The notes beneath the pieces are model-generated. The model saw only the letters and a list, made by a program, of their open reading frames with translations, was not told the DNA's origin and did not search any database. From Bacilli bacterium (GTDB lineage Bacteria; Bacillota_I; Bacilli_A; RFN20; CAG-826), in NCBI GenBank assembly GCA_034176765.1, contig JAXFTN010000141.1:1-42799 (forward strand): DNA of 42,799 bases, given 5' to 3'. Shown here piece by piece: positions 1 through 17,387 of this stretch; within the stretch, counting starts at the first letter, position 1, and every line of letters starts with the position of its first letter. Both the position numbers and the translations under genes were made by a program.

Positions 1-43
1 GCAAAGACTTAATTAACTTGAAAAGCTTTATTAATGTCTTTGC
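1..43 (-). terminator. Possible hairpin downstream of the protease gene, truncated by the window edge
   Basis: GCAAAGAC (1-8) is the reverse complement of GTCTTTGC (36-43). It lies 9 nt beyond the minus-strand stop at 52-54. Any U-tract would be off-window. Confidence 0.25.
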
Positions 44-51
44 TTTATTAA

Positions 52-864
52 TTATAAGATTTTTAATTCTTCTTTTTGTTCGACTTCTTTTATGAATTCA
101 AGAATGACTTTTAAAGGAATAGCATAATTCATAACAAGAGCATCGTTACTTCCACTAGTAACCATACCAAGTAGTTCTCCATTTTCATTAAATACAGGAC
201 CACCCGAATTACCATTTGTGACTAAAGCAGTAATCATCATATATTCATGGCCACTAATTTCACGCACATTATCAGCTACAATTCCATCAAGAATTGCTAG
301 GCCTTTTCCTTTACTATTTCCAATTGTATATACCTTTTCACCAGTAACACAATCGCCACTTGCAAATGAACAAGATTTATAATTGCTCTCATAAGCAAAA
401 TGTAAAATACATATATCAAGTTCTTTTGAAGCAAATACAAATTCTAATTCATATAATGTATCACTATCATTAAATTTAGCAAATACATTTTCGCATAAAG
501 TAGTATTTTCAGGATCATCTTTATCAAAAACAATATGTGCATTTGTGATTACATAATTTGAATTAATTATAAATCCAGTACCAGTAGAAGCCTTATTAGC
601 AAAATTACAATAAATTGCAACTACACTATCAATGTTATCTTTAAATATATCTTTAGCATCTTTTTTATTAGTTGCACTAGATATATTAGAAGTTTCTACT
701 CTAGATTTTTGAATATATTTATTCCTTTTAGATAAAGAAGAGAAAGTTTCATTACAAGAACTACATACATATGAATAAACAGTATCCTCTTCAACATTTT
801 CTTTAGAAATAACTTTAATATTTTTTGATCCACATATTGGACAAATATCATATATGAATTCCAT
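52..864 (-). CDS. Zinc-ribbon-fused trypsin-like (S1, Trypsin_2-type) serine protease
   Basis: N-terminal four-Cys ribbon CPICGS...CSSCN. Catalytic-triad contexts TNAHIV (His), LDICILH (Asp), GNSGGPVF (Ser). Start moved to ATG 864 (MEFIYD) because GAGGTG lies 6 nt upstream; the ORF-track GTG at 873 sits inside that SD. Follows the TIR gene stop by 12 nt. Confidence 0.8.
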   Translation of the reverse strand: MEFIYDICPICGSKNIKVISKENVEEDTVYSYVCSSCNETFSSLSKRNKYIQKSRVETSNISSATNKKDAKDIFKDNIDSVVAIYCNFANKASTGTGFIINSNYVITNAHIVFDKDDPENTTLCENVFAKFNDSDTLYELEFVFASKELDICILHFAYESNYKSCSFASGDCVTGEKVYTIGNSKGKGLAILDGIVADNVREISGHEYMMITALVTNGNSGGPVFNENGELLGMVTSGSNDALVMNYAIPLKVILEFIKEVEQKEELKIL

Positions 865-876
865 TTTAAACACCTC

Positions 877-3447
877 TTATTTTTTAGGTGAATACTCTTC
901 TACCAAGTGATCAAAGTACTCATATTTATTTTTATAAACAGCTAATTCTTGAAGTAATTTCTTTTCTTTTCTTCTTAAGTTAGCATATTTATTAAACATT
1001 GATTTAGAAGTAATCTTATTACCAATAAATATAAATAGGCGTAAGATAAATACAAAATCAAAGAATGCAGCGATACCTAAGAAAACTTTTCCCAATATTT
1101 CTTGTGCCATATTTGGAGAATGTAAGAAATCTTTAAAGATAAAGAATAGTACATTAAATAAAACTACAAAGAAAAGAAGTGCTTTTGGGAATGTATTTGT
1201 TTTTGACTTTTTATTAGCTTTATTGAACCTTTTCTCACATTTTTTCATTTCTGAATGTATTGAATTTTGAGTGGAGTAAACACTAAGAATATTATCTCTT
1301 TCTTGTTTAAATTCCATATCTTCTTCATGATATTTACGTTGTTTTTTAACAATATCCATAAAGAATTTTGTTTGTTCATCATCAGCATGATTTAACATAG
1401 GAATATACTCATCAAATGATAAAATATCACGTGAATATATTAGTTCCTTTTCATTTTTAACTTCACATTTCGCCATAATTATATAGTAATAAAATGTAGC
1501 TTCTGTAGAGTCAATAGAAGACAATAATTCAAATAAATATTTAGCTGCAGAGAATTTTCCTGTTTCTAAATAAATATTACCTTTTTTAAATATTTCACTA
1601 CTGAAACACTTAATATTTTCAGGATAAAATTTTAATAATTCTGTATAAAAATCTAAATTTAAAGAATCATACGGAATCGCTTTTAAAATTGCTTCAATTT
1701 CTTGTTTTTGTTGATCTTGATTTTGATATTTTAATAAATCTTTTAAACTCTCATAAGTTTTCAATTTATCAATATTAGCATCATATTCAACTAAAGAAGG
1801 ATCAAGAGTTGAACAAGTTGCAATTCTAATTAATGCTCGACGAGCAACATTATTTCCTTCGTCAACACTAATTAATGTATTTGCAATCTCACTTGCCTTA
1901 GAGAAATTACCGCTTGTTACTTCATGAGATAATAATTTAGTTAACCAATAAATATATTTATCAATGTCATCAATTGAAATAATTTTTACTAATATTTCGA
2001 ATAAAGTAAAATCATAATATTCGATAGCTTTTTGTATAAATTGTTCTAAGTAGTCATTTCTTTTACTATATTCATAGACAAAGATTATATCACATAACTT
2101 GTAAGCTTTTTGAGCATTTGCACCAAGAGGATTTTCTAATAATCTTTGGAAAAATTTATAAAATGTTTCAATAATTAAAAGGGCATAATTTTCACTGCAA
2201 TGACGCAATGCTTGTTCGATGAGTTCTAAATCAGTAACTTTTTGTAAATTCATTGTTAATACTGCATCAAGACCTTTTAACTTATTGATACATAAGAATT
2301 TTCTAAAAATAGCATCTCCATCAAGTGGCTCATTTTCTAGAATTTTATTAATGTGGTCAAGTCCTAAATCAAAGACGCCATTATCAATAAATTTATCTGC
2401 AATATTTAATTTTTCATTAACTGTATAAGATTTGCCTTCAATTGCTTCAGCTCCAATAATACGATTTGAAACATCATGCTCACTGCTTAATTTAGTAGCT
2501 TTCTTTCCAATCTCTTGTTCAATTACAGCTTTCTTTAATCCCTTTTTTCCACTAGGAGTATTTTTCAATACACTAGATACATAAGATTCAAGTGAATCCA
2601 TCCAAGTGATATTACTTACATCAATTGCTTGTAATGATTTTAAAGGATTAGGTAGTGTTCCAGGATTCAATCCTTTATATAAAAGAATTAATGAATTACT
2701 TGCTTTTTCTTTATTTACAATTCTTCTTGCAAATCTGGACCATTCATTTTTGACCCACGTTGAAGTAATATATTCTTCTTTAGAACCATAAATGATCATA
2801 ATTTTTGCTGTATTTAAGGCATTAAAAATATATGGTTCATATTTTTCACCATAACAATTCAAAGAAATTCGCGAAAAGAAAACATTATAACCTTTTGACT
2901 TTAAAAAATGATAAACTTCTTGAGCTTCATAACTATCACGTGTTCTTTCAATACCATTTTCAGTTTCGGTATCTTTATAAGAAATGAAAATATCATATGG
3001 TGGAAGCTTTGAAGCTTTCTCGACCCATTCAATACGATTCTTTTCAATTATTTCAGCTTGTTTTTCATAATAATCTTTTTCGTCTTTACTACCATAACGT
3101 AAAGCTAATTTATAGTTCTTATCTTCATATAATGAAGCATAACTTGTTGCATAACATGTAGGAATTTTCTTTCCATCATAATCGGTCTCATATTTGATAC
3201 CATATTTAGAAAGTAATAATCCCCAATAATTACGAGATGAATGTGGGTATTTAACAACTATATCTGAAAATAAATTTTCAGCTTCTTCAAAATTACATAA
3301 TCTTAATGCTTGAGAAGCATTGTAATAAAGGGTGTCTTCTTCATTTGATAATTCTTCTGGTTTATAGGCACCACATGCTTCACATACCCATTTCCCATTT
3401 TTATATACATATGTACCACCACATATATTACAAATATTTTTGTCCAT
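877..3447 (-). CDS. Zinc-ribbon / TIR domain / long helical-repeat protein with C-terminal membrane hairpin
   Basis: N-terminal CNICGG...CEACG ribbon followed by TPR-like helices. The central segment YDIFISYKDTE...NVFFSRISL...IMIIYGS...STWVKNEWSRF matches the TIR (TIR_2) strand-helix pattern, including a conserved Glu. A helical region of more than 400 aa follows. Two hydrophobic helices lie near the C-terminus (ALLFFVVLFNVLFFIF and VFLGIAAFFDFVFILRLFIFIG). GGGGGTG SD upstream. Confidence 0.8.
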   Translation of the reverse strand: MDKNICNICGGTYVYKNGKWVCEACGAYKPEELSNEEDTLYYNASQALRLCNFEEAENLFSDIVVKYPHSSRNYWGLLLSKYGIKYETDYDGKKIPTCYATSYASLYEDKNYKLALRYGSKDEKDYYEKQAEIIEKNRIEWVEKASKLPPYDIFISYKDTETENGIERTRDSYEAQEVYHFLKSKGYNVFFSRISLNCYGEKYEPYIFNALNTAKIMIIYGSKEEYITSTWVKNEWSRFARRIVNKEKASNSLILLYKGLNPGTLPNPLKSLQAIDVSNITWMDSLESYVSSVLKNTPSGKKGLKKAVIEQEIGKKATKLSSEHDVSNRIIGAEAIEGKSYTVNEKLNIADKFIDNGVFDLGLDHINKILENEPLDGDAIFRKFLCINKLKGLDAVLTMNLQKVTDLELIEQALRHCSENYALLIIETFYKFFQRLLENPLGANAQKAYKLCDIIFVYEYSKRNDYLEQFIQKAIEYYDFTLFEILVKIISIDDIDKYIYWLTKLLSHEVTSGNFSKASEIANTLISVDEGNNVARRALIRIATCSTLDPSLVEYDANIDKLKTYESLKDLLKYQNQDQQKQEIEAILKAIPYDSLNLDFYTELLKFYPENIKCFSSEIFKKGNIYLETGKFSAAKYLFELLSSIDSTEATFYYYIIMAKCEVKNEKELIYSRDILSFDEYIPMLNHADDEQTKFFMDIVKKQRKYHEEDMEFKQERDNILSVYSTQNSIHSEMKKCEKRFNKANKKSKTNTFPKALLFFVVLFNVLFFIFKDFLHSPNMAQEILGKVFLGIAAFFDFVFILRLFIFIGNKITSKSMFNKYANLRRKEKKLLQELAVYKNKYEYFDHLVEEYSPKK

Positions 3448-3460
3448 ACCTACACACCCC

Positions 3461-4597
3461 CTACATCAAACCATTTTTATAAAGTTCAAATTTTTCTAAA
3501 TCTTCTTTCGAAGTTTTTGGTTTATTTTTTGCAATAATTACATCACAATCATTTTGTGAAATTAATACTTCTTTTCCAGACTTAACTGATTTTTTATATG
3601 CCTCAGCACGAATCTTGTCACACATTGAAACTATATCGCCACCATTGTATCCTTCAGTTTTTTGTGCTAATAGATTAAAATCAAAATTTTCAGTTAAAGG
3701 AACGCCTTTCATAGCTTTTTTTATCATAAATAAACGTGCTTCAAAATCTGGTAAACCCACATATATATGTGTATCAAATCGACCACCACGGCACATTGCA
3801 GGATCTAAAGCCCATGGTCTATTAGTAGCACCAATTAATAGTAACATTTTACAAGTTTTAGATTTTTTAAATCCATCAACTTTTGTTAAAAATGTTGCAA
3901 CAAATCGAGCCATTTCAGCGTCAACTCCACCAGTTGAATCTTCTCTTTTTGATGCGACTGCATCCATTTCGTCAAAGAAAATAATAGCTCTTTCATTCTT
4001 TTGAGCCTCTTCAAAAAGTGCATCTAATTGTTTAGAACTTTCACCCATATATTTTGAAATTAAATCAGAACATTTTATTGAATAAAATTTTGCATCAACT
4101 TCACCAGCAATTGCTCGTGCAATAAATGTCTTACCAGTACCTGGTGGGCCATATAAAATGATTTTACCACCAGCCTTAATGTTATATTTTTTTGCTAATT
4201 CTGGATTTTTTAAAGGTTCAATTACATTATAAATAATTTGATCTTTTACATCTTGTAAACCTGCAACATCATTAAATGTAACTTTATCTTCTTTAGGAAT
4301 TTCAATAGCTTGAAATGTTTTTTCTTCCTCTTCAGAATCTCCTTTTTGTTTATTAGTTATATTTTTAACTGGACGTTTTTTTACACAGTTTTCTCTAACA
4401 AAAACAAGAATTTTTTCCGCTACTTTATGATATTCAGTTCTTACATCATAACTAGTTGCATCAATTGAAATTTTATTTGCTAATTCGGCTGCTTTTAAAA
4501 AGGCACTTCTAGCACTTTCAATGTCACCTTTAGCAAAATACTCTTTGCCTTGTTGATAAAAACTTTTATACGCCTCTACTACTGATCCATTATTCAT
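3461..4597 (-). CDS. Vps4-like AAA+ ATPase with N-terminal MIT/TPR-like three-helix domain
   Basis: Walker A ILYGPPGTGKT, Walker B IIFFDEMDA, second region of homology GATNRPWALDPAMCRGGRFD. SDLISKYMGES and the PW motif resemble the Vps4/katanin/spastin clade. The first ~75 aa (AYKSFYQQGKEYFAKGDIESARSAFLKAAELANK...EYHKVAEKILVFV) look like an MIT-type helical bundle. GGAGG SD. Confidence 0.8.
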   Translation of the reverse strand: MNNGSVVEAYKSFYQQGKEYFAKGDIESARSAFLKAAELANKISIDATSYDVRTEYHKVAEKILVFVRENCVKKRPVKNITNKQKGDSEEEEKTFQAIEIPKEDKVTFNDVAGLQDVKDQIIYNVIEPLKNPELAKKYNIKAGGKIILYGPPGTGKTFIARAIAGEVDAKFYSIKCSDLISKYMGESSKQLDALFEEAQKNERAIIFFDEMDAVASKREDSTGGVDAEMARFVATFLTKVDGFKKSKTCKMLLLIGATNRPWALDPAMCRGGRFDTHIYVGLPDFEARLFMIKKAMKGVPLTENFDFNLLAQKTEGYNGGDIVSMCDKIRAEAYKKSVKSGKEVLISQNDCDVIIAKNKPKTSKEDLEKFELYKNGLM

Positions 4598-4619
4598 AGA
4601 GAACCTCCACTAGTAATAA

Positions 4620-5210
4620 TTATAATAATTTATTTTTTTCTGCTTCGATTTCTTTTGTTAAATCAATGTCACTTACTTTTGGCATTGAAGCATTTTGTCC
4701 TGTTAATTTAGCTCTAGCTGCATCAATCATTGGACGTACAGAAGCAATTTCAGCTTGAGAGCGTACTCTATTAGCTGGGTTAGATGATTTCATAACACTT
4801 CCCATTGCTTTTTGAGATATTTTAATTTGTCTCATATATTTAGCAATTTTTACATTTGCTCTTTGAATTTTTGCAATATTTGGCATCTTATTTTTATTGT
4901 TTGCCATGTTATTTAATGCATTTACAGCCATAGCCATATTTGTTGCAATTGAATTAGATACATTAATGATATCAAAATTTGCTTTTGTTTGAGTTAAACT
5001 AGAAATAACATCATTTAATTCCATCAATGCACTTAAAGCAACGTCATAACTTCCTTGGTCTCCATTAACTTCAGCCTCAGCAGCAATATGTGCATATTCT
5101 TGTCTTTTTGCTTTTAATTCGTTGATTTGATCATTGAAAATTTGCATTTGCTCATCACGTTGCATTTGAGCCATGATTTCTTTTTCTGCTTTTGTCTTAA
5201 AAAATGCCAT
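4620..5210 (-). CDS. ESCRT-III (Snf7/CHMP)-like helical protein
   Basis: 196 aa, all-helical by composition, with a basic N-terminus MAFFKTKAEK and a long heptad hairpin region. The Met/Asn/Ala-rich segment AMAVNALNNMANNKNKMPNIAKIQRANVKIAKYM resembles the CHMP alpha3-alpha4 region. Acidic amphipathic C-terminus DIDLTKEIEAEKNKLL. The ATG overlaps the upstream stop (TAATG). Confidence 0.6.
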   Translation of the reverse strand: MAFFKTKAEKEIMAQMQRDEQMQIFNDQINELKAKRQEYAHIAAEAEVNGDQGSYDVALSALMELNDVISSLTQTKANFDIINVSNSIATNMAMAVNALNNMANNKNKMPNIAKIQRANVKIAKYMRQIKISQKAMGSVMKSSNPANRVRSQAEIASVRPMIDAARAKLTGQNASMPKVSDIDLTKEIEAEKNKLL

Positions 5211-6223
5211 TATTTTGTACCCCCGACTTCTAATTCTTCACTAGCATCAATTCCTGAATCCATTTCTTTTTGATTACTTTTCAATTCTTCTTTTTCTTTT
5301 TTCTTACGAAGAAGTTGTTCTTTATAAGCTAAAGCATCTTGAGAAACAGATATTGTTGATGTGTTAACTCCAAATACTTTTTCATCCATATTTTTTGTTC
5401 TTTCAGCAATTAATTGAGTATCTTTTTCCATTCTCTTTAAAATAGATATAGCTTTCTCAGGCTCAGAAATAACTGATTTTAATCTAGACATATTTAGAAG
5501 CGCTCTTGCTTTTCCTAAATCTTCTAACGAATAATCACTTTCTACTACAATCTCATTAGCATTGCTATAAATTAAATCTAATAAATTAAAGCAAGCTGAA
5601 TAATTAGCTTTTCTAACATTGAGCATATCTAATTTACTCTTTAAAGAAGATATCTTACGATATAATTCATTAATACGACGTTCATTCTCTTCTTTTAGCA
5701 TTAAACTATCTAATTCGTTTAAATCTTTTTCTAATGAATAAATATCTTTTTCTAATCTTTGTTCATTCGCTACAAATTGATTTTTAATAGTTGCTAATTC
5801 ATCAAGTCTATTTTGTAATTTCTTTCTAGACCATGTCATTTTTTCTTTTTCGGTAGTACCAATTTCTTCACTATTCATATCACCTTGGAGTACAGATTTC
5901 CAAACATCAACTGAATAAGTAAGATTTGATACACCTTCTTCAAGTCTAGTTACTAAATCTTGATTAGCTAATTCATTTAATTCAACGACTTGTTTTGAAA
6001 CTGTTTCAGCAATACTTGAAATATCTTCTTTACCAGTTCCTACACAATTATCAAGTCCTGAAATGGCATCTTTTAATTCTACAGCTAATGCATCGACTGC
6101 ATCTTTATCTAAATAACTATTTACTTTATGAGTTTCAAGTTTAAAACATACTTTCTTTAAATCTTTTAATGCTTTGTCTTTAAGAGCATTATTATTTTTA
6201 ATTGATGGACTATATTTTTTCAT
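5210..6223 (-). CDS. 337-aa coiled-coil protein, possible second ESCRT-III/PspA-superfamily subunit or adaptor
   Basis: Long heptad-rich helices (KLQNRLDELATIKNQFVANEQRLEKDIYSLEKDLNELDSL...INELYRKISSLKSKLDMLNVRKANY) and an acidic C-terminal tail DSGIDASEELEVGG. GGAGGA SD. Its stop overlaps the next start. Confidence 0.6.
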   Translation of the reverse strand: MKKYSPSIKNNNALKDKALKDLKKVCFKLETHKVNSYLDKDAVDALAVELKDAISGLDNCVGTGKEDISSIAETVSKQVVELNELANQDLVTRLEEGVSNLTYSVDVWKSVLQGDMNSEEIGTTEKEKMTWSRKKLQNRLDELATIKNQFVANEQRLEKDIYSLEKDLNELDSLMLKEENERRINELYRKISSLKSKLDMLNVRKANYSACFNLLDLIYSNANEIVVESDYSLEDLGKARALLNMSRLKSVISEPEKAISILKRMEKDTQLIAERTKNMDEKVFGVNTSTISVSQDALAYKEQLLRKKKEKEELKSNQKEMDSGIDASEELEVGGTK

Positions 6224-6237
6224 ACATTATTCCTCCA

Positions 6238-6891
6238 TTAAGCTACTTTGCTTCTAATTCTTTCAAGATCATCACTATTAATATGAATACCTTCAACTGT
6301 TAAAGAATTTAATTTAAGACCCATTGACTTAAATGATTTTTCTTCACATAAAGAGCTGAACAATCTTTCTTGTAATTCCTTTGCTTTTAAAGTTGCATTG
6401 AAGACTGAAACTTCTTTATCAACTAAAAGATTATTTAATATAGGAGCACCCACTGATTTAATTACTGAGATTGTCTTTTCTCTTAAATCATCAATAGTAA
6501 CAACATTGAATCCAGAATATGCGGCAATCAATCGACCAAAATCTTCAATTTCGAGAGCGTATTTTCCATTTGCTCCAGCTTTATACAATTCATTTTGATG
6601 ATCGTTTTTGATTTCAATATTTCCAAATCCCCATGCAAGTAAAGGTAAAGAATTAATTAATATAAAACATACTTTGACATTTTGCCCTAATAAATCTTTT
6701 CCATATTCTTTTAATAAGTTAATATGATTACAATTATCAACTCTGAAACTTAATTTTTCATTAATATATACGAAACCTTTATAACCATTAGGAACTGTAA
6801 GAAAAACGCTTTTATCAATTTTAGCAGAAGGTGAAAATTGAACAACACAATCAGTTAAATAACTACTAGGTGCCAATTCATTTGTTTTCAT
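6238..6891 (-). CDS. Divergent SPFH/Band-7-like protein (YdjI-type fold, no zinc ribbons)
   Basis: Colinear block similarity by eye to the two YdjI-like proteins in this window. LTVPNGYKGFVYINEKL matches LVVREGQRAIFINKGKL. VKVCFILINS...WGFG matches ADIYFIQTK...WKTP. GANGKYALEIEDFG matches EAEGKFSFKVTEPS. MGLKLNSLTVEGIHIN matches LGLDVCGLYIENIVLP. GGGGGA SD. Confidence 0.6.
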   Translation of the reverse strand: MKTNELAPSSYLTDCVVQFSPSAKIDKSVFLTVPNGYKGFVYINEKLSFRVDNCNHINLLKEYGKDLLGQNVKVCFILINSLPLLAWGFGNIEIKNDHQNELYKAGANGKYALEIEDFGRLIAAYSGFNVVTIDDLREKTISVIKSVGAPILNNLLVDKEVSVFNATLKAKELQERLFSSLCEEKSFKSMGLKLNSLTVEGIHINSDDLERIRSKVA

Positions 6892-6906
6892 TTGTCATAA
6901 TCCCCC

Positions 6907-7254
6907 TTATTTCTTTTCAATAATTTCGCAAAGTTGATTTAATGTTGCTTCACTAAGATCATCTTTAGTCAAAGCAAAAATTAATTTCTTTTGCGTTTCA
7001 CTTAGTTCAGATAAATCAACTTTTACAGAATCCGAAGTAGCAGCAATTGCATCACGTAATGACTTGACTTCTTTTTCCGTTAAATCATAATTTTTGCAAA
7101 CAATGGCATCAAAATTCTTTGGAACATTTCGTTTGCCATTTTCAATAGCAGATAAATAAGAAGAAGATAATTCTAGTTTCTCAGCCATTGTTCTCATACT
7201 GTCTCCAGAATTAATACGAATAATTCGAAGAACTTTACCTAATTGAGTAATCAT
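6907..7254 (-). CDS. XRE-family helix-turn-helix transcriptional regulator, first gene of the operon
   Basis: LGKVLRIIRINSGDSMRTMAEKLELSSSYLSAIENGKRNVP is a classic XRE/Cro-C1 HTH. GAGGGGG SD. Promoter immediately upstream. Confidence 0.85.
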   Translation of the reverse strand: MITQLGKVLRIIRINSGDSMRTMAEKLELSSSYLSAIENGKRNVPKNFDAIVCKNYDLTEKEVKSLRDAIAATSDSVKVDLSELSETQKKLIFALTKDDLSEATLNQLCEIIEKK

Positions 7255-7283
7255 AAATAATGCCCCCTCTATATTACAAGAAA

Positions 7284-7312
7284 ATTATACCAACATTTAA
7301 ATTGATTGTCTA
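7284..7312 (-). promoter_or_regulatory. Sigma-A-like promoter of the seven-gene operon
   Basis: On the minus strand: TAGACA (7312-7307), a 17-nt spacer, then TGgTATAAT extended -10 (TATAAT at 7289-7284), about 30 nt upstream of the XRE ATG. Confidence 0.55.
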
Positions 7313-7342
7313 CAAAATTGTAAACACTTTTTTCAATTTTGT
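7312..7342. promoter_or_regulatory. 9-bp perfect inverted repeat abutting the -35 box (candidate XRE operator or weak ansA terminator)
   Basis: ACAAAATTG (7312-7320) and CAATTTTGT (7334-7342) are separated by 13 nt. No U-tract follows on the minus strand. Confidence 0.4.
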
Positions 7343-7359
7343 GATATTTTTTATAATTT

Positions 7360-8358
7360 TTATAGGTTGATATCGTTATTTATTTTGGTATAAAGCAATT
7401 TTTTAATTAAATTTTTATCATTAGTTTGCCCTAAAACCCACATTACTTTACAAACTAAACTTTCAAGAGTCATGTCATATGCTTCAAGAACTTCATATTT
7501 ATCTTTAATTTTCTTACCGACTTTATATAATCCCAAATTACTACCTTCATAAGGAACTTGTGTTGTTATTATTAAAGTTTTATTTGACAAAATAAATCTT
7601 TCTAAAGCATCAGAAAATTGTTGTTCATCATACATTGGTATTCCACCAACACCAAATGATTCAATTATACATGCATCATAATGTTCGCTCACATAATCAA
7701 ATATATCTAAGCTCATACCAGGAATTAGTTTAAGTACAAAAACTTTAGGATTCATTGAATCATAGAATTTAACTCCTTTATTAACATCGATATTAACTTC
7801 AATGTATTCAATTACTTTACCATCTTGAATATTTGCAATTGCAGGATAATTAATACTAGTAAATGCATTATATGATTTTGTTCTATTTTTCTTAGCACGA
7901 GTACCAAGTATAACTTTACCATCAAAAACAATAGTAACCCCATGGCCTGTTGGATGACTAGCATAAATAAAGGCATCAAATAAATTGCTACGTGCATCGC
8001 TATCTTTCATAAAAATAGATTTTTGTGATCCAGTTAAGACTATTGGTTTAATTGAATTTTGAATTAAATAAGATAATGCTGAAGCTGTAAAAGCCATAGT
8101 ATCAGTACCATGAGTGATTACAAATCCATCATATTTATCATAATTTTCTTTAATAGTTTCAACCATTTTTAACCAATGTACATAGTTGATATTTGTACTA
8201 TCAAAATTAAAAAGTTCAATAGTGTCAATATTACATACATTAGATAAATCATCTAAATATGATAATAATTCTTTACTATTGATTTTAGGCATAAAGCCAT
8301 CGATTGTAGGTTTAGAAGCTATTGTTCCACCTGTTGTAATAAGTAATATATTTTTCAT
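7360..8358 (-). CDS. ansA: L-asparaginase, type I
   Basis: ILLITTGGTIAS and ITHGTDTMAFTASALSYL signature blocks. 332 aa length is typical. Confidence 0.9.
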   Translation of the reverse strand: MKNILLITTGGTIASKPTIDGFMPKINSKELLSYLDDLSNVCNIDTIELFNFDSTNINYVHWLKMVETIKENYDKYDGFVITHGTDTMAFTASALSYLIQNSIKPIVLTGSQKSIFMKDSDARSNLFDAFIYASHPTGHGVTIVFDGKVILGTRAKKNRTKSYNAFTSINYPAIANIQDGKVIEYIEVNIDVNKGVKFYDSMNPKVFVLKLIPGMSLDIFDYVSEHYDACIIESFGVGGIPMYDEQQFSDALERFILSNKTLIITTQVPYEGSNLGLYKVGKKIKDKYEVLEAYDMTLESLVCKVMWVLGQTNDKNLIKKLLYTKINNDINL

Positions 8359-8443
8359 AAAAGTACCTTCATTTTTAATTTATCACAACACTAATATAAA
8401 CAAAAGATAATTATAATATTCCCATGAAAAAATTGCAGTTTTT

Positions 8444-8488
8444 AAATGTACTCCTTTCCTGTTTTTCTCTAGAATTAGGAGTACATTT
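8444..8488. repeat. 12-bp perfect inverted repeat with 21-nt loop in the bioY-ansA intergenic region
   Basis: AAATGTACTCCT (8444-8455) pairs with AGGAGTACATTT (8477-8488). No adjacent U-tract on either strand. Confidence 0.5.
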
Positions 8489-8596
8489 CATACTTGAATC
8501 TCTTTTTTATTATTTGATTAATATTATTAATCTTAAAACTTCTATGTATATTTCAAATAATCTAAATAAATAATTATATAAAATAAAAATAGAATA

Positions 8597-9526: not shown

Positions 9527-10963
9527 CTAATAAGCCTTAGCAAATAGACAGACATATTTTGCTTCTTTACCACAGATAGCACATTTATCACTATGAGCTT
9601 GTTGAGTAAATGGCATACATCTTGATGTTGCTTGGAACTCTTCTTTTATAACGTTTTCACATTCGACGTTCCCACACCACATCATTTTTGCATAGCCACC
9701 TTTAGTGTTAACAACTTCTCCCAATTCTTCTTTTGTATAAACTGTAGTAGTGTGTTCATCTAAATAAGCTTGTGCTTTATTTAACATTTCACCGTGAATT
9801 ATTTCAAGTGTAGACAATACTTTGTCTTCTAATTCATCTAGAGAAATAACACATTTTGTTCCATCATTACGTTTAGCAAGTACGCAATTATTATTCTCAA
9901 TATCACGTGGTCCTAATTCAATTCTTAAAGGAATACCTTTCATTTCATGTTCATGGAATTTCCAACCAGGTGAAGCATTTGTATCATCAACAATTACACG
10001 AACACCTTTTTTAAGTAATCGTTCTTTTAGTTCATTTGCTTTTTGTAAAACACCATCTTTTTGTTGTTGAATAGGAATAATAACTACTTGATTAGGAGCT
10101 ACTCTAGGTGGTAATACTAAACCATTATCATCTCCGTGTACCATAATAATTGCACCAAGTAAACGTGTAGAAACGCCCCATGAAGTTTGATTTACATAAG
10201 AAATTTTACCATCTTTATCTTGAAATTTAATTCCAAATGCTTTTGCAAATCCATCTCCGAAGAAATGAGTTGTTCCACTTTGTAAAGCTTTGCCATCAGG
10301 CATTAGAGCTTCTATTGTATATGTTGATTCAGCACCTGCAAATTTTTCTTTATCAGTTTTCTTTCCTGTAACAAAAGGAATAGCTAATAAATTACGTCCC
10401 ATTTCATTATAAATATCTAACATTTTCAATGTTTCTTCCATTGCTTCTTCTTTCGATGCGTGAATTGTATGACCTTCTTGCCATAAGAATTCACTACCTC
10501 TTAAGAATGGTCGAGTTGTTTTTTCCCAACGAACAACAGAACACCATTGATTATATTTTTTAGGTAAATCTCTATATGAATTAACAATTTTAGCAAAGTG
10601 TTCGCAAAATAAAGTTTCAGAAGTTGGTCTAACAATAAGACGGTCTTCTAATTCATCTTTACCTCCAACTGTAATAATTGCACATTCTGGAGCAAATCCT
10701 TCAACGTGATCTTTTTCTTTTTGGAATAAAGATTCAGGAATAACCATTGGCATATACACATTTTGATGTCCTGTTTCTTTAAATTTATTGTCTAGATAAT
10801 GTTGAATTTGTTCCCAAATAGCATATCCGTAAGGTCTATAAATAATAAAACCTTTAACAGATGAATAGTCCATTAATTCTGCCTTACGACATACATCTGT
10901 ATACCATTGAGCAAAATCTTCTTTTTGTGATGTAATAGCATCATTTTTAATATCAATTGCCAT
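9527..10963 (-). CDS. proS: Prolyl-tRNA synthetase, archaeal/eukaryotic-like short form with C-terminal zinc-binding domain
   Basis: Class II motifs ([26 protein letters not shown]) and no large INS editing insertion. C-terminal Cys cluster CGNVECE...[18 protein letters not shown]. Confidence 0.9.
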
Positions 10964-10982
10964 ATAAATACCTTTCTTTCTT

Positions 10983-12728
10983 TTATTTCTTAATTAAATT
11001 ATTAATTTTTGATAAATTTGGTGGAATAATAATCTCACGCGGTTCACCAAATAATTTACCACCAACTATACGAATATTGTTTTCATATATAACTTTAAAA
11101 TCTGATTTTGTATCAACACCAACTGAAATAATTGGCTTATTATAAATTTCTAATTTATTTAAAATAGCTCTAAATGAACTTGAAGTCTCAACAGCTTCTC
11201 GTGAAACATTAATGTGCTTAGTAAACAAGAAATAATCAAATAATTGATATAATTCCCTAGTCCAAGGAAAATCACGGTCTTTAATACGTAAACATAATTC
11301 GTAGTTTTTAGTTTTGAAAACTTCTAATAGTTTAAAAGCTCTATCAATATCTTTTTCAACAATTTCGTTGAGTACTGATTCACTTATAACGAAAACTAAA
11401 TTACATTCATCTAAATGCTTTACTTCACTTAGTGTATTAAATATTGAATCAATATCAAATTTTGATAGTTGTATGAACAACTTTTGAGGACATTTACCTT
11501 TTCTATTTTGAAAAACCTTTACAAAAGTTGAATAATAAATACCAATTAATCTTTTGACGACAACATTAGATAACTCATTAACCAAGCCATGTTCATGAGC
11601 AGCTTCAAACATGTCATTTAAACTTTTAAATTTTGTTGAATAAGCAACTGTTTTTGTATAAAAGCCAAATAAAGAACAAGTGTCAGCATCAATTAGTGGT
11701 AAATACAAAGATTCAATTTTCTTTTCTCTATTATTACCTTCAATCAGTTGAAGAAGTTCGTGTTTTTCAACTAATGATTTTTCAATCGAGTCATCATTAA
11801 CTTTGTTATACCATTCAACTTTGTTATTATTTTCATTATGAAAATAAGTTAAATTTTTAATTTCTTCTAAACAGTCAATAGGATCTTTAAAAAATTCATT
11901 TTGGGCTACACCAATGAAAAAATCAAATACAGATGAATAACCAGATAATTCAAGACGAGCCTGTAATTTCCTACTAAGATTATTTAAAATAGTTTTGTAT
12001 TCTTCTAATGATTCATCGGTATAATCAATTATTCCAAAACCATTTTTGTCATCTTCTCCAAGATTCAATCTTTGTCTTAAGTTTGATTCTCCTGTAAAAG
12101 CAATACAAATAGTCTTTAAATCATTAATTATAATATTAGCTTTTTCTTGTATAACTTCTCTATCTAAAGGAAAAATTCTAATATATATCATATAGCCATC
12201 AGCTCTATGTTTTCTTAAATATGCAGTACCAATAGAAATACCACTACTATTATTAACAAAATGTGACATACCTTTTGAATAAGAAATTGGATAACCCACT
12301 AAATGAAGAATTGAGTTTGAAGATTTCATTTCTTCAACAAAATAAAAAGAAATGAATTCATCTTCTCCTACTAAAATATCAATTTCAGAATTAAGTGATT
12401 TATTAATCCCATTATTTAAATCAGATAAATAAATCTTAAACATTCCCAATTTACGCGGGTCTGGAATTTTTTTATAGAAATCTTTAAAAGAGTATTTTTC
12501 AATTTTACTAGCGTTATATCTTTTAAAATAAGTTACTTGTTTTTTATTAAAATCAAAAATAAATTCATAAATGTTTTTGTTACGTTTATTAATTTCATTT
12601 GCACGAGTTTTATTTAAGAAAAAAGAATGAATTACGCCTAAAATGCAAGCAATGCAAAAAAAGCCAATAACTACAATAGAAATTGTCGTTAAAATATCGC
12701 TAACATCCATTGAAAACACTGTAAGCAT
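10983..12728 (-). CDS. Membrane-anchored protein with degenerate GGDEF-like and EAL-like domains
   Basis: N-terminal TM helix. [14 protein letters not shown] sits where RxGGDEF is expected. EAL-like blocks have substituted catalytic positions: [21 protein letters not shown] (YTK in place of EAL), [16 protein letters not shown] (in place of DDFGTG), [12 protein letters not shown]...VGGKLFGEP (in place of AEGVET...QG). Confidence 0.55.
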
Positions 12729-12751
12729 ATTAATTCCTCTCTTTCTTGAAT

Positions 12752-12780
12752 ATTATATACTTATAATAAATAATAAACAA
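12752..12780 (-). promoter_or_regulatory. Candidate promoter for the GGDEF/EAL-like gene and proS
   Basis: Minus strand: TTGTTT (12780-12775), a 17-nt spacer, TATAAT (12757-12752). AGAGAGGAA SD before the ATG at 12728. Confidence 0.4.
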
Positions 12781-12818
12781 CAAAATAAAAAGATAAGAGC
12801 AATAAATATTGCTCTTAT
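12781..12818 (-). terminator. Rho-independent terminator of the SPFH/zinc-ribbon operon
   Basis: ATAAGAGCAAT (12793-12803) pairs with ATTGCTCTTAT (12808-12818) around a 4-nt loop. CTTTTTATTTTG follows on the minus strand. Confidence 0.75.
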
Positions 12819-12833
12819 TTCATCATCTTATTA

Positions 12834-13898
12834 TTATAATTTTTCTCCGCATTCACTACAGAATTTAGAGCCTTTTTTTACTTCTGCACCACAATTAGGA
12901 CAGAACTTTTTCTTTTCTACAATTTTTGCTCCACATTCACTGCAGAATTTTGATCCTTCTTTAACTTCTGCTTTACATTCAGGGCAAATAATGGAACCTT
13001 TAGCTTTTTCTTTAGAAGAACTTTGTTCTGAGACTTCTTCTTTCTTTGATAAGTTTTCAGCAAACATTTTTCCTAAAGCAACTCCTGCACCTAAACCAAT
13101 GCCTGCACCTGATAATCCACCTGGATTTTTTGCAGCATCACGCATTGCTTCAACACTTTGCATTTTTGCATAGTCATCAATGCTTCCCTTCATTACACCA
13201 ACTGAAGTTCTCTTATCCATCATTTTATTAACTTCTTCTGGTAAGACAATATTTTCAATATATAGTCCACATACATCAAGACCCAAAGATCCTAAATCAT
13301 CTTTTAATTTATCTTTTGCATTATCAGCAATTAATTCGTAGTTTGCAGCTAAATCTAATGCAGCTAATTTTAATTCACCAATAGATGTAGTTAAAATTGA
13401 TGACATAATGGATTTTAAATATGTATTAACGTCGCTTACACGTAAAATATCAGTTGAACCGAATAATTCAAACATTGCTTGAGAAGGTTCAGTTACTTTA
13501 AAAGAGAATTTACCTTCTGCTTCAATACGAACCATTCCAAAGTCTTTATCTCTTAACATTATAGGTCTTGGAGTTTTCCAAACATTATCCATGAATTGTT
13601 TTGTTTGAATAAAATAAATATCAGCAGTAAATGGACTTTCAAAAGCATATGTCCAACTATAAATAGCAGTTAAAATTGGTATATTTTTTACATCATCTAA
13701 ATCATATGTACCTGGTTCAAAAACATCAGCTAATTTACCTTTATTGATGAAAATAGCACGTTGACCTTCTCTAACTACTAATTTAGAATGCTTCATTATT
13801 TCAACTTTTTTTTCAAGAGGATATTTATAAACAATAACATCTCTTGGCACATCTTCCCATTGAATAACTTTTCTAAATTGATTTCTTAAAAATCCCAT
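12834..13898 (-). CDS. YdjI-like SPFH/Band-7 protein with two C-terminal zinc ribbons
   Basis: N-terminal VIQWEDV...VVREGQRAIFINKGKLADVF...FESPFTADIYFIQTKQF is typical of the SPFH 'virion core protein-like' family. Gly/Ala-rich hydrophobic linker. C-terminus CPECKAEVKEGSKFCSECG...FCPNCGAEVKKGSKFCSECG. Confidence 0.8.
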   Translation of the reverse strand: MGFLRNQFRKVIQWEDVPRDVIVYKYPLEKKVEIMKHSKLVVREGQRAIFINKGKLADVFEPGTYDLDDVKNIPILTAIYSWTYAFESPFTADIYFIQTKQFMDNVWKTPRPIMLRDKDFGMVRIEAEGKFSFKVTEPSQAMFELFGSTDILRVSDVNTYLKSIMSSILTTSIGELKLAALDLAANYELIADNAKDKLKDDLGSLGLDVCGLYIENIVLPEEVNKMMDKRTSVGVMKGSIDDYAKMQSVEAMRDAAKNPGGLSGAGIGLGAGVALGKMFAENLSKKEEVSEQSSSKEKAKGSIICPECKAEVKEGSKFCSECGAKIVEKKKFCPNCGAEVKKGSKFCSECGEKL

Positions 13899-13910
13899 AT
13901 TTTTTCCTCC

Positions 13911-15014
13911 TTAAAATATATTAGAAATATCGATTACATCAGTCCATATTAATACTAATATAATAATAGCAATAAATATAATTACAGTAAATACAATTCC
14001 AAGTACTTTTGCAACTGAAACAGGCGCTTCACCCTTTGCTTTTCCTGTAATACCATGAATTCGACATTGATAATTTTTGTTTTTATAAATATAGTTAATA
14101 AAATAAATTGGAACCAAAATGTATTTGTAGCAAGTATCATTAAAACTTGTATTCGCTTGATAAGAAATAACTGTATCTACACCTGTATACTTATTTATTA
14201 CGCCTCTTTTAATGCGAGCTTTCATAATATCAACTGCTTCATTCCACGAGTCTCCAATTGATTCAGAATATCTTTCACAAGAATATCCACTGATAAATTG
14301 ATCATGAAACGAAGATGCTTGATTAGTGTTAAAGCCACCTAGAGCATCATATTTATTTTGTTCAATATGACAACTTGATTCAATATTAATATCATCAAAA
14401 TTCATATTAATAATTCCACTACCACTATGAGTGGTCATATATGTTTCAGTGTGTCTATTTTTTCCTGTTCCTACCGTACGTGTATGATATGTTCCATATG
14501 TTAATTTATAAGAACTAACTGTTTTACTATCAAAAGTAAATGTAGGGATATAAACACCATCAATTTTTCGTTCTCGAGCTGTTTTCTTAAAAGATTTAGG
14601 TGCCATATTTTTACTTTTAACCCATTTCAAAAAAATATTTTTAGCTTCTTTGTAACCTATCTCAAAAGGAATAATACCTGAAGGTCTAATTCCTGGAATC
14701 TCTCCTCTTTCTAAAATATGAACTCGGCCACAAAATGGACAACTTGTTGATGTTTCATTATTACTTAAAACAAATTCCGCACCACAATCTTCACATTGAA
14801 CACATTTAGTCCCCGTCCACATACATGATTTACTTATAACATCATTTGTAAAAGGAGTCTCCTTAGCAAGCTGAGTTTGTACTAAAGGCATTGTTGAATC
14901 ACAATGAGGACATCTCATAACTCCATCATCAGCATCGTAGATAAAAGAAGATCCACAGTTTTCACAAAAATAAGATTTAGAGGTATAAACTTTATTAGTT
15001 CCCTTTTCGTCCAT
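13911..15014 (-). CDS. YdjG-like double zinc-ribbon protein with C-terminal transmembrane anchor
   Basis: Two ribbons, CENCGSSF...CPHCDS and CEDCGAEF...CPFCGR. C-terminal TM VLGIVFTVIIFIAIIILVLIW. GGAGG SD. The ATG overlaps the upstream stop (TAATG). Position between SPFH genes recalls B. subtilis ydjG. Confidence 0.65.
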   Translation of the reverse strand: MDEKGTNKVYTSKSYFCENCGSSFIYDADDGVMRCPHCDSTMPLVQTQLAKETPFTNDVISKSCMWTGTKCVQCEDCGAEFVLSNNETSTSCPFCGRVHILERGEIPGIRPSGIIPFEIGYKEAKNIFLKWVKSKNMAPKSFKKTARERKIDGVYIPTFTFDSKTVSSYKLTYGTYHTRTVGTGKNRHTETYMTTHSGSGIINMNFDDINIESSCHIEQNKYDALGGFNTNQASSFHDQFISGYSCERYSESIGDSWNEAVDIMKARIKRGVINKYTGVDTVISYQANTSFNDTCYKYILVPIYFINYIYKNKNYQCRIHGITGKAKGEAPVSVAKVLGIVFTVIIFIAIIILVLIWTDVIDISNIF

Positions 15015-16075
15015 TATAATTTACCTCCACAGTTAGGACAAAATTTTGCACTTTCTTTTACTTCAGTACCACATTCTTTACAAAATCTTTTTCCTAAAGG
15101 TGTACCACAATTTGAGCAAAACTTTGCACTTGTTTTATTTTCAAAATTACATTTTGGACAAACCTTATTATTGCTATTTGAAGAAGGTTTAGAAGTTTGA
15201 TCATTAGCTTGATTCATCATTTCTTTACCAGCTTTTAAAGCAAAAGCAAATCCTAATCCTGTATTCATTCCATTGTTAATTTCATTGTTGCCGTTACCTG
15301 GATTTTTAGCAGCATCACGCATTGCTTCAACTGTTTCAATTTTAGCATAGTCATCAATGCTTCCTTTCATGACACCAACGCCAGTTCTTTTATCAATCAT
15401 TTTTTCAACATCAGTAGGTAAAGATAAGTTTTCAATATAAAGGCCTTTAATTTCAATTCCTAATCTAGAAAATTCTTTTTCTAATTTTTCTTTTGCAATT
15501 AAAGTAATATCATCATAGTTCATTGCTAAATCTAAAGCTGGACAACCTAGTTCAGCAATAGAGTTAGATAAAATAGAAGTAATAATTGATCTAAAATATT
15601 TATCAACATCACTAACATATAAATAATCTGTACTTCCAGCTATCTCAAATATAGCATCTTGTGGCTTCTTAATAGCAAAACTATATTTACCAAAGCCCCT
15701 GATACGTACCATACCAAAATCTTTGTCACGCATCATTATAGGTTTAGAAGTTCCCCATTTGTTATCTAAAAATTGTTTAGTCTGGAAAAAAATTATATCA
15801 GCAGTAAAAGGACTTTCAAATGCATATGTCCAACTATACATAGCTGTTAATAAAGGAATATTTTTTACATCCTTTAATGAATATGTACCAGGCATAAAAA
15901 CGTCAGCAAGTTTTCCTTGATTAATAAAAACAGCACATTGACCCTCACGAACAACAAGTGTTGATTTTTTCATTATTTCTTCTTTCTTTTCAAGAGGATA
16001 TTTATATACTATTTCATCACTATTTACATTTTCCCATTGGATAACTTTACGAAATTGATTTCTAAAAAAACCCAT
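15014..16075 (-). CDS. Second YdjI-like SPFH/Band-7 protein with C-terminal zinc ribbons (paralogue of 12834-13898)
   Basis: The first ~130 aa are nearly colinear with the paralogue (MGFFRNQFRKVIQWENV...FESPFTADIIFFQTKQF). C-terminus CPKCNFENKTSAKFCSNCG...FCKECGTEVKESAKFCPNCG. Confidence 0.8.
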   Translation of the reverse strand: MGFFRNQFRKVIQWENVNSDEIVYKYPLEKKEEIMKKSTLVVREGQCAVFINQGKLADVFMPGTYSLKDVKNIPLLTAMYSWTYAFESPFTADIIFFQTKQFLDNKWGTSKPIMMRDKDFGMVRIRGFGKYSFAIKKPQDAIFEIAGSTDYLYVSDVDKYFRSIITSILSNSIAELGCPALDLAMNYDDITLIAKEKLEKEFSRLGIEIKGLYIENLSLPTDVEKMIDKRTGVGVMKGSIDDYAKIETVEAMRDAAKNPGNGNNEINNGMNTGLGFAFALKAGKEMMNQANDQTSKPSSNSNNKVCPKCNFENKTSAKFCSNCGTPLGKRFCKECGTEVKESAKFCPNCGGKL

Positions 16076-16156
16076 AAGTAATTCCTTTCACTTAACGTTT
16101 ACCTTTCTATATTTTTTATGTTATCACATTTTATTTACCTGCGCATTATTAATTAA

Positions 16157-16185
16157 TTGAAAATATATATTTGATAATATATAAT
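16157..16185 (+). promoter_or_regulatory. Sigma-A-like promoter for tRNA-Ser(CGA)
   Basis: TTGAAA (16157-16162), a 17-nt spacer, TATAAT (16180-16185), 9 nt upstream of the tRNA 5' end. Confidence 0.6.
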
Positions 16186-16194
16186 GAAAAAGCC

Positions 16195-16285
16195 GGAGAA
16201 ATACTCAAGTGGTTGAAGAGACTAGTTTCGAAAACTAGCAGGAGGTGCAAGCCTCGCGAGGGTTCAAATCCCTCTTTCTCCGCCA
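16195..16285 (+). tRNA. tRNA-Ser (anticodon CGA), encoded CCA
   Basis: GGAGAAATACTCAAGTGGTTGAAGAGACTAGTTTCGAAAACTAG...GAGGGTTCAAATCCCTCTTTCTCCGCCA. CTAGT/ACTAG anticodon stem with loop TTCGAAA. Long variable arm. Confidence 0.9.
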
Positions 16286-16381
16286 TTAATGGAAGTTTTC
16301 TATTTTTTATCTATTTGTATATATATTTTAAAAATAAGTAATAAAGAACAACTTTAGTTTATATAAATTATTTTAATAAAT

Positions 16382-16406
16382 AAAAAAAGGAGATAACTCC
16401 TTTTTT
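16382..16406. terminator. Bidirectional hairpin terminator
   Basis: AAAAAAAGGAG ATAA CTCCTTTTTT lies between the tRNA and the convergent HTH gene stop (16412). Confidence 0.65.
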
Positions 16407-16411
16407 GTTAT

Positions 16412-17212: not shown

Positions 17213-17387
17213 TGCTTTACCTCCCTAACAACACTTTTATTAAACCAGTAGCATACACGGTTGCACTACATATTCTAGTTTGAAACAACGCAACTATTGG
17301 TTGCAAATGCAAATTTTATCTCGTTTAAGGTGTAAATTGCTAAGTTTTACTATATTAGGTGATCTAAGAAAATAAATACTATCATTA

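Follow-up and report, generated by a model that had tools for sequence, protein, structure and literature searches.

The open reading frame (ORF) at positions 6238..6891 on the minus strand of a 42,799-nucleotide contig from a Bacilli bacterium (JAXFTN010000141.1, assembly GCA_034176765.1; the whole contig is hereafter called the window) encodes a genuine minimal SPFH protein of the PF13421, or YdjI, family, reduced to the SPFH core, and we regard this identification as practically certain. An earlier note, made from the sequence alone, had placed this SPFH-like protein at the head of an ESCRT-like module and suggested that it reuses the relationship between YdjI and PspA. That precedent is real: in Bacillus subtilis, YdjI, with YdjG/H, links PspA to the membrane (Scholz 2021, PMC8581546). 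We found that the SPFH-like gene does head a conserved module, and that the gene next to it in every locus examined encodes a helical protein of 337 amino acids (aa), which we propose is its direct partner. In the reading we favor, to which as a whole we assign a probability of about one half, the two proteins would form a hub that serves both an ESCRT-III-like polymer and membrane-bound TIR proteins. The weight of the SPFH-like protein comes from these operon neighbors.

Profile and fold comparisons carry the identification. The 217-aa protein matches Pfam PF13421 (Band_7_1) with 26.6 bits (E 5.6e-6), above the curated gathering threshold of 24 bits, across residues 73-206 and profile positions 69-197 of 211, and two relatives from its subfamily score 27.7 (P0134) and 40.9 bits (P0145). 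When an alignment of nine family members was compared by hhalign with one of 16 canonical YdjI-like proteins, including both YdjI-like paralogues encoded in the window (12834-13898 and 15014-16075, minus strand), the two aligned over 202 columns with a probability of 99.6% (E 5.1e-24), pairing residues 13-217 of the SPFH-like protein with 26-240 of the canonical set. Profile identity between the two groups is only ~16%. Just three residues, W107, G129, and G206, are invariant throughout the canonical set, and their counterparts W87, G109, and G191 are likewise invariant in the SPFH-like family. The AlphaFold2 model (predicted local distance difference test score, pLDDT, 91.0; predicted template modeling score 0.79) has an N-terminal beta-rich part followed by the SPFH alpha/beta domain. 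All 48 of the matches at E ≤ 1e-3 that it retrieved in a fold search of the PDB are SPFH proteins, among them stomatin (E 2.2e-7), prohibitin, HflK/C, QmcA, flotillin, erlin, and the major vault protein. A phmmer search of PDB sequences returned nothing useful, and PADLOC, NCBIfam, and PHROGs supplied no system or family name. The PF13421 match and the Band-7 fold, the two findings on which the note's description of this ORF as SPFH-like hinged, are thus both in hand.

Pairwise comparison with the paralogues is marginal. BLASTP aligned the SPFH-like protein with the product of 15014-16075 across 130 aa at 23% identity (E 0.002) and gave no alignment with that of 12834-13898; for this reason its kinship to the two rests on profile and fold evidence, and the note's description of the similarity as visible by eye is a generous one. 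The paralogues are 354 and 353 aa long, 60% identical to each other, and each carries a double zinc ribbon (DZR/Zn_Ribbon_1), a domain that a Pfam scan did not find in the SPFH-like protein. The latter ends where the SPFH domain closes and therefore lacks the glycine-rich linker and double zinc ribbon of the paralogues, as had been noted; we also found in it no transmembrane (TM) or other hydrophobic segment and no coiled coil.

The SPFH-like protein represents a new minimal subfamily within a known family. Twenty-eight columns are invariant across its homologues down to 37% identity, and the motif WGFGNI sets the subfamily apart. A word-based search recovered only 13 homologues; a hidden Markov model (HMM) search of a library of 1.84 billion protein cluster representatives recovered 221 at E ≤ 1e-3, of which 109 reach E ≤ 1e-10, and in its tail ran into the canonical zinc-ribbon YdjI-like proteins. 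About a third of the subfamily is longer, at 450-625 aa (P0134, P0139, P0145, P0146, P0166; L014:1775-3298), owing to a ~280-aa C-terminal extension made of an acidic coiled coil and then a conserved alpha domain ending ...NKIRHKSxEN...GLYTKD, which is unrelated to the other operon proteins. One further member, P0135, is either a fusion of the SPFH protein with a helix-turn-helix (HTH) protein or a merged gene call.

The operon and the proposed partner of the SPFH-like protein

The SPFH-like gene is the second gene, and the first structural gene, of a seven-gene minus-strand operon in which the intergenic gaps are 0-23 nucleotides (nt) and Shine-Dalgarno sites are present; its own, AAGGGGGA, is located 9 nt 5′ of the ATG. 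The features of the operon, from its upstream end, are as follows.

7311..7322, no strand: perfect palindrome TACAATTTTGTA, arms TACAA-TT-TTGTA, overlapping the -35 hexamer; read directly from the sequence
7284..7312, minus: promoter-like site TAGACA-17 nt-TATAAT with extended TG; 11 of 12 consensus matches, a consensus match only
6907..7254, minus: XRE-type HTH regulator, 115 aa, first operon gene; Pfam HTH_31/HTH_19/HTH_3 above cut-offs, PADLOC HTH_VI 2.4e-10
6238..6891, minus: SPFH-like gene, 217 aa, ATG start; soluble truncated PF13421 (YdjI-family) protein
5210..6223, minus: helical/coiled-coil protein, 337 aa; no family match
4620..5210, minus: ESCRT-III-like protein by predicted helix topology, 196 aa; start overlaps the upstream stop
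3461..4597, minus: AAA+ ATPase, 378 aa, Vps4-like layout; Pfam AAA 3.8e-40
877..3447, minus: zinc ribbon, TIR domain, helical repeats, and two C-terminal TM segments, 856 aa; Pfam TIR_2 4.4e-11
52..873, minus: zinc ribbon and trypsin-like serine protease, 273 aa, last operon gene; Pfam Trypsin_2 2e-23, full length

To place this operon among its relatives we used 30 loci from a scan of one genome per species, annotated with the window's proteins. Nearly all come from uncultured gut Firmicutes (Clostridia, Bacilli, and Anaeroplasmataceae), together with one Elusimicrobiaceae and one Bacteroidaceae metagenome-assembled genome (MAG); the window itself shares 97% identity with a ‘Bacilli bacterium’ MAG in the scan. 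All 30 loci have the 337-aa gene next after the SPFH gene, 27 of them continue with the 196-aa gene, and in most an HTH gene lies 5′ of the SPFH gene. This order of HTH, SPFH, 337-aa, and 196-aa genes holds at 34-48% SPFH identity and in differing flanks, and all five contexts retrieved through the 196-aa protein carry the SPFH and 337-aa genes upstream. The SPFH-like gene therefore heads a conserved module, as the note had it, with one correction to the layout: the gene immediately downstream encodes the 337-aa helical protein, and the gene with ESCRT-III-like topology and fold ranking is the third of the set.

The 337-aa protein has no match in Pfam, PADLOC, NCBIfam, or PHROGs, and a PDB profile search with it returned coiled-coil noise only. 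Two identities for it found no support by hhalign and were rejected: a second ESCRT-III (negative against the 196-aa family and against reference ESCRT-III sequences), and the C-terminal domain or coiled coil of the long SPFH variants (negative against their extension). What it shares with the SPFH-like protein is its rate of divergence. The median pairwise identity is 43.9% for both proteins, whereas the 196-aa protein stands at 71% and the ATPase at 62.5%. By the crude measure of mirror-tree correlation, SPFH distances follow those of the 337-aa protein, at r 0.79 (partial 0.74), rather than those of the 196-aa protein, at r 0.42 (partial -0.12), and the 337-aa protein in turn gives partial correlations of 0.5 with the 196-aa protein and 0.66 with the ATPase. 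Judged by universal adjacency, equal divergence, and mirror-tree correlation, the SPFH protein has its likely direct partner in the 337-aa protein and not in the polymer; the two very probably form an obligate pair.

Operon variants bear on what this pair would do. Downstream of the conserved part, the loci hold one or two AAA+ ATPases (of the window's ~380-aa type and/or of 406-468 aa), one to four TIR genes, and often a protease. A reduced variant in three species (L026, L031, L035; around 9990-17400) consists of an SPFH-like gene (221 aa), a 312-aa helical protein that is a C-terminally truncated version of the 337-aa protein, and a giant TIR protein, with no HTH gene, 196-aa gene, ATPase, or protease. 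A core-only variant (L043:4132-7582, L016:9621-13081) has an HTH gene, a 500-aa SPFH protein, the helical protein, and the 196-aa protein, and no ATPase or TIR gene; sugar-metabolism genes come next in both loci, and the L043 copy adjoins Mob_Pre and serine recombinase genes. Because the pair is retained with either the 196-aa protein or a TIR protein, it looks like a hub that serves one or the other. By the same token, since SPFH tracks the 337-aa protein and not the 196-aa protein, and three species do without the 196-aa protein and the ATPase, a recruiter-polymer link, if real, is probably indirect.

The flanks of the loci vary (proS, pnp, smpB, serine recombinases, Mob_Pre), from which we conclude that the element is patchy and at least sometimes mobile. 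An origin from a plasmid or phage was considered and is unsupported, tblastn with the most conserved protein having found nothing among sequenced plasmids and phages.

Upstream of the operon, the promoter-like site lies 30 nt 5′ of the HTH gene and has the best score within positions 1-8500, and the palindrome overlapping it is a possible operator for the HTH protein. The window sequence is present in pig-gut and wastewater metagenomes, and RNA-derived contigs from four pig-gut metatranscriptomes span about 3125-7384, two of them stopping near the promoter-like site; as evidence of expression this is weak, since the depth of contigs measures it poorly and some DNA may have been carried over. 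The operon is apparently undescribed: a full-text literature search found no description of it.

The 196-aa protein, the ATPase, and the TIR proteins

The 196-aa protein has at least 654 homologues at 70-85% identity and belongs to no Pfam, NCBIfam, PDB-sequence, or PHROG family. Its predicted helices (7-49, 52-103, 112-128, 133-142, 152-170, 184-195) form a long hairpin from the first two, followed by four short helices, a succession that matches the helix order of ESCRT-III. The AlphaFold2 model has a pLDDT of 62.5 overall and about 80 over the hairpin. With this model, the top 14 Foldseek matches in the PDB are all ESCRT-III superfamily members, at weak E-values of 8e-3 to 0.3, and include CHMP2A/CHMP3, Asgard ESCRT-IIIB, CHMP1B, Vipp1, CdvB, and Shrub. 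The termini are compatible with this assignment: the N-terminus is conserved as M-A-F-F-K-T-K, an aromatic and then a basic stretch, and the invariant C-terminal helix, LDLSAEIEAEKNKII, is acidic and hydrophobic and resembles an MIT-interacting motif. Searches by sequence found less. Neither phmmer nor a PDB profile search gave an ESCRT-III match, and in a family-wide Pfam scan one of 20 members matched Snf7, at E 0.022. On balance, we think it likely that the 196-aa protein belongs to the ESCRT-III superfamily. Residues 10-79 also show a weak PADLOC match to PD-T4-2_B (E 8.6e-4, 17.4 bits), which may reflect either a remote relationship to that known two-gene anti-phage system or nothing more than coiled-coil noise.

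The ATPase has a conserved helical N-domain of ~75 aa that is TPR/MIT-like (TPR_8 at E 1e-4, below cut-off), then a charged linker, a single classic AAA cassette with intact Walker motifs (GPPGTGKT, DEMD), and a C-terminal helix. The NCBIfam CdvC model is collinear with it, aligning residues 23-373 with 24-364 of 370 (E 4.8e-54, 184 bits, against a cut-off of 650). A second AAA+ ATPase type, 404-468 aa long, stands beside the 380-aa type or replaces it (L005:9009-10226, L023:13437-14657, L037:6724-7944, L041:7588-8802). The L023 copy passes the gathering threshold of Pfam Vps4_C; in L041 both ATPase types carry Vps4_C, the orthologue of the window ATPase by a precomputed weak match. We are fairly confident that the window ATPase has a Vps4-like architecture. 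That the module as a whole is ESCRT-like is only partly shown, and of the Snf7/Vps4-type machine that the note had recognized, the ESCRT-III fold ranking and the Vps4-like layout stand and a significant Snf7 or PspA sequence match does not.

The remaining genes give the operon its conflict-type character. The 856-aa TIR protein, with TM segments at residues 751-777 and 783-812, shares an N-terminal zinc ribbon, a TPR-like helix, and the TIR module with the TIR proteins of the other loci. An S.W..NEW motif is invariant, glutamate included, in 34 related N-terminal TIR modules, and we assume that this glutamate occupies the position of the catalytic glutamate of TIR NADases; the window protein is accordingly a candidate NADase effector or sensor. 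TIR genes number one to four per locus and encode 400-2300 aa. The relatives carry, after the TIR module, a single predicted TM segment (at 317-346, for instance) and beyond it up to ~1600 residues of Flg_new and BspA-type leucine-rich LRR_5 repeats; giant TIR proteins with such Toll-like-receptor-style topology are encoded at L026:11636-17443, L035:11626-15681, and L022:12964-18687. RES is another NAD+-degrading toxin domain, and a RES-domain gene (PF08808) follows the ATPase gene in L044 (8942-9805), itself followed by a 2525-aa gene; it looks like a second effector type of the same system. The protease has its histidine in TNAHIV and its serine in GNSGGP. Serine recombinase, Mob_Pre, or SmpB genes neighbor some loci.

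Within the TIR gene (877-3125), contigs from related strains, derived from RNA as well as DNA, are broken or skip sequence, for example with a joint at 964/2514, and their coverage there is far patchier than over 3125-7384, which suggests strain-level replacement of the effector part.

We slightly favor the view that the system is of a conflict or defense type and linked to the membrane. This is the most likely role because the system combines NADase-type effectors that vary and occur in several copies with a protease, an HTH regulator, adaptors that evolve fast, and a patchy distribution, and it is the TIR or RES effectors and the protease that mark the operon as conflict-type and not as a Psp-like stress operon.

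A proposed hub and its alternatives

We propose the following arrangement. The SPFH and 337-aa proteins would form a membrane-proximal hub, or platform, in which the coiled-coil part, present in cis in canonical SPFH proteins, is contributed in trans by the 337-aa protein. Through the 337-aa protein the hub would connect to the polymer-forming, ESCRT-III-like 196-aa protein, and the Vps4-like ATPase would turn this polymer over, its N-terminal MIT-like domain binding the conserved C-terminal helix. The same hub would gather the zinc-ribbon-TIR membrane proteins, whose relatives have huge extracellular LRR/Flg_new ectodomains, so that an envelope or phage-related signal could be converted at the SPFH platform into NAD+ destruction by TIR (or RES) domains. 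The ESCRT-III-like protein and the ATPase may remodel or repair the membrane or gate the effectors, with the trypsin-like protease and the HTH protein providing proteolytic and transcriptional control. By analogy, the YdjI-PspA logic, in which an SPFH protein brings an ESCRT-III-type polymer to the membrane, is probably reused here via an adaptor and in an immune-like setting. Taken singly, SPFH-dependent membrane targeting of the polymer is a tentative proposal, with the odds somewhat against it. The recruiter-polymer relationship of the earlier note thus survives in altered form: the SPFH gene does lie beside an ESCRT-III-like gene, but SPFH tracks the 337-aa protein, YdjG/YdjH-type partners are missing, and the effectors are of a conflict type.

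A number of results pull the other way. The ESCRT-III assignment depends on a mediocre model and weak Foldseek E-values, and a control library of viral structures gave the 196-aa model equally good E-values with tape-measure and other long-helix proteins, so that the fold signal lies in the exclusive ranking and not in the score. The 196-aa protein has no match to Pfam Snf7 (PF03357) or PspA_IM30 even at E 10, and hhalign of its family against CHMP3, CHMP2A, CHMP1B, Snf7, and PspA, using approximate reference sequences and serving as a lead only, did no better than reversed controls. For the ATPase, an MIT domain was not detected as such, a PDB profile search with the N-domain matched only designed consensus TPR proteins, Vps4_C in the window copy is sub-threshold (E 0.005, 17.2 bits against a gathering threshold of 21.3), and CDC48, PAN, and FtsH models outscore CdvC on the core (CDC48 222 bits). 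The mirror-tree pairs are non-independent, and conservation of the 196-aa protein is close to saturated. Because the SPFH-like protein has neither a TM segment nor a recognized membrane partner, its membrane association is an assumption. PADLOC-DB v2 calls no known defense system and has no match for the SPFH or TIR proteins, its component matches being limited to generic AAA (IetA/TRIP13), RT-protease, and HTH, and the tblastn search of sequenced plasmids and phages did not find the system. Finally, we infer every interaction from gene order and co-variation.

Of the other explanations, the one that survives best has the SPFH-like protein itself bind the 196-aa protein and recruit it to the membrane as YdjI does PspA, the 337-aa protein being a second polymer subunit or an accessory. 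The SPFH-like protein does belong to YdjI's Pfam family, its gene and the 196-aa gene occur together in 27 of 30 loci and in all five 196-aa-anchored contexts, and there are precedents in YdjI-PspA (PMC8581546) and in the SPFH genes of archaeal ESCRT loci (PMC11188069). We nevertheless consider direct recruitment unlikely: the SPFH/196-aa correlation falls to a partial of -0.12 once the 337-aa protein is accounted for, in three species the SPFH/337-aa pair occurs with no 196-aa protein, and the 337-aa protein shows no similarity to the 196-aa family. YdjI, moreover, depends on YdjG/H, membrane proteins that are missing from the operon, and has the linker and zinc ribbons that the SPFH-like protein is without.

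Rather improbable, in our view, is an arrangement of the HflK/C or stomatin type, in which a cage or platform of SPFH, together with the 337-aa protein, regulates an AAA+ unfoldase and the trypsin-like protease, these together controlling the stability or activation of the TIR membrane proteins, with the 196-aa protein as a helical adaptor and not an ESCRT-III polymer. The SPFH-like protein has neither a TM anchor nor a cage-forming coiled coil, and the ATPase has no TM or protease domain of its own. SPFH proteins do classically pair with proteases, the trypsin gene lies directly 3′ of the ATPase gene in many loci, and HflK/C-FtsH and QmcA-YbbJ structures are among the fold matches; yet many otherwise complete loci have no trypsin gene. 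The SPFH-ATPase distance correlation (r 0.77) suits this arrangement, and so does the ATPase core, whose scores against FtsH/PAN/CDC48 unfoldases are no lower than against CdvC, but both ATPase types show Vps4_C signals. Likewise, the weakness of the ESCRT-III assignment must be set against top fold matches that are exclusively ESCRT-III and against the conservation of the 196-aa protein, which at 71% exceeds that of every other component and is what a polymer or a part of a machine should show.

A housekeeping module for envelope stress, membrane repair, or vesicles, comparable to Psp/Lia, with the TIR-LRR proteins as cargo or surface proteins that have no defense role, seems to us improbable. 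A syntenic chromosomal position near proS in two related Bacilli genomes speaks for it, but the distribution is patchy, flanks differ, and recombinase or Mob_Pre genes are neighbors. LRR_5/Flg_new ectodomains are typical of surface proteins; against this, the TIR genes vary from one to four in copy number and from 400 to 2300 aa in size, the S.W..NEW glutamate is invariant, and one variant has a RES NADase-type gene. Apparent expression in gut metatranscriptomes without known induction and the lack of a PADLOC system call would also suit housekeeping, whereas the fast evolution of the SPFH/337-aa pair fits conflict systems better.

That the SPFH-like gene is a duplicate of the neighboring YdjI-like genes that has lost its function and is in decay, as its shorter length and marginal BLASTP similarity might suggest, is already refuted by the conservation data and next to impossible, given an intact frame with a Shine-Dalgarno site, 28 invariant columns, a model pLDDT of 91, 221 matching cluster representatives, and an operon position conserved in 30 species.

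Surveys have found ESCRT components and Vps4-like ATPases to be absent from bacteria, or present as rare transfers that lack or displace Snf7 (PMC11188069, PMC7619361, PMC11237479). Should the 196-aa protein and the ATPase be a true ESCRT-III/Vps4 pair, the operon would contradict the statement that bacteria lack Vps4-regulated ESCRT-III (PMC7619361, PMC11188069) and would offer a compact system in which to study how SPFH platforms nucleate ESCRT-III polymers. Some archaeal ESCRT loci contain SPFH genes, and an ancient link between SPFH and ESCRT-III has been proposed (Makarova et al. 2024, PMC11188069); this proposal becomes directly testable in bacteria. The membrane TIR proteins, some with LRR ectodomains, and the RES gene suggest a previously unclassified membrane-linked immune system, abundant in gut Firmicutes as judged by the homologue counts for the 196-aa protein (at least 654) and SPFH (221 cluster representatives). 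The most far-reaching reading would be of a bona fide bacterial ESCRT-III/Vps4-type remodeling machine, tethered by SPFH plus an adaptor and wired to Toll-like-receptor-style LRR-TM-TIR proteins, as a prokaryotic immune or membrane-damage module; a single module would then join three machineries thought to be of eukaryotic type, namely the SPFH microdomain, ESCRT-III/Vps4, and the TIR receptor. We hold this reading to be doubtful.

Comparison with known systems

The closest known relative is YdjI. The SPFH-like protein shares its family and fold, runs collinear with PF13421 proteins starting in the beta-rich N-terminal region and continuing until the SPFH domain closes, has the invariant tryptophan and two glycines, is soluble, and is encoded in a locus with a gene for an ESCRT-III-superfamily-like protein. 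It differs in stopping at residue 217, before the glycine-rich linker and double zinc ribbon, and in its company: the operon has no pspA, ydjG, or ydjH, and the SPFH-like protein is accompanied instead by the 337-aa and 196-aa proteins, the AAA+ ATPase, the TIR protein, and the protease. On both counts it is a PF13421 member and not a YdjI orthologue. The window's paralogues keep more familiar company. A YdjG-like gene (13911-15014; 367 aa, two zinc ribbons, and a C-terminal TM segment) lies between them, 7 kb from the SPFH-like gene; a 581-aa TM protein (10983-12728) comes next after this cluster, with no pspA gene adjacent. In L003, beside proS, one YdjI-like gene, a 364-aa gene, and a 584-aa gene stand in the same order.

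Archaeal ESCRT-III/Vps4 loci of the Cdv and ‘Meth_adaptin’ types resemble the operon in combining SPFH, an ESCRT-III-like gene, and a single-cassette AAA+ ATPase in one locus (PMC11188069), and in an ATPase with an N-terminal helical domain and a C-terminal helix. The SPFH gene of the archaeal loci encodes a protein with SPFH, coiled-coil, and zinc-ribbon parts (PMC11188069). The present operon, in contrast, is bacterial, its 196-aa protein lacks a Snf7 match, its ATPase falls below the CdvC and Vps4_C thresholds, and in place of ESCRT-I/II, adaptin, and GOLD parts it has TIR or RES effectors and a protease.

With HflK/C-FtsH and stomatin/QmcA-NfeD/YbbJ, the operon has in common an SPFH protein encoded together with an AAA+ ATPase and a serine protease, and these systems provide the best fold matches. 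The SPFH-like protein, however, lacks a TM anchor, carries no cage-forming coiled coil in cis, and is without an NfeD partner, and the ATPase and protease of the operon are separate soluble proteins, the protease being trypsin-like and bearing a zinc ribbon.

Thoeris and other TIR anti-phage systems, together with IetAS, share with the operon a TIR motif containing the glutamate, the pairing of an AAA+ ATPase with a serine protease, an HTH protein, and variable effectors. There is no ThsA, and the ThcB4 match reaches only E 0.003. The similarity of the operon's ATPase to IetA/IteA is generic to AAA (127 bits against a cut-off of 510), and the IetS protease is subtilisin-like, whereas the protease here is trypsin-like. 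The TIR proteins of the operon differ further from those of TIR anti-phage systems in being membrane-anchored, with LRR ectodomains in some of their relatives.

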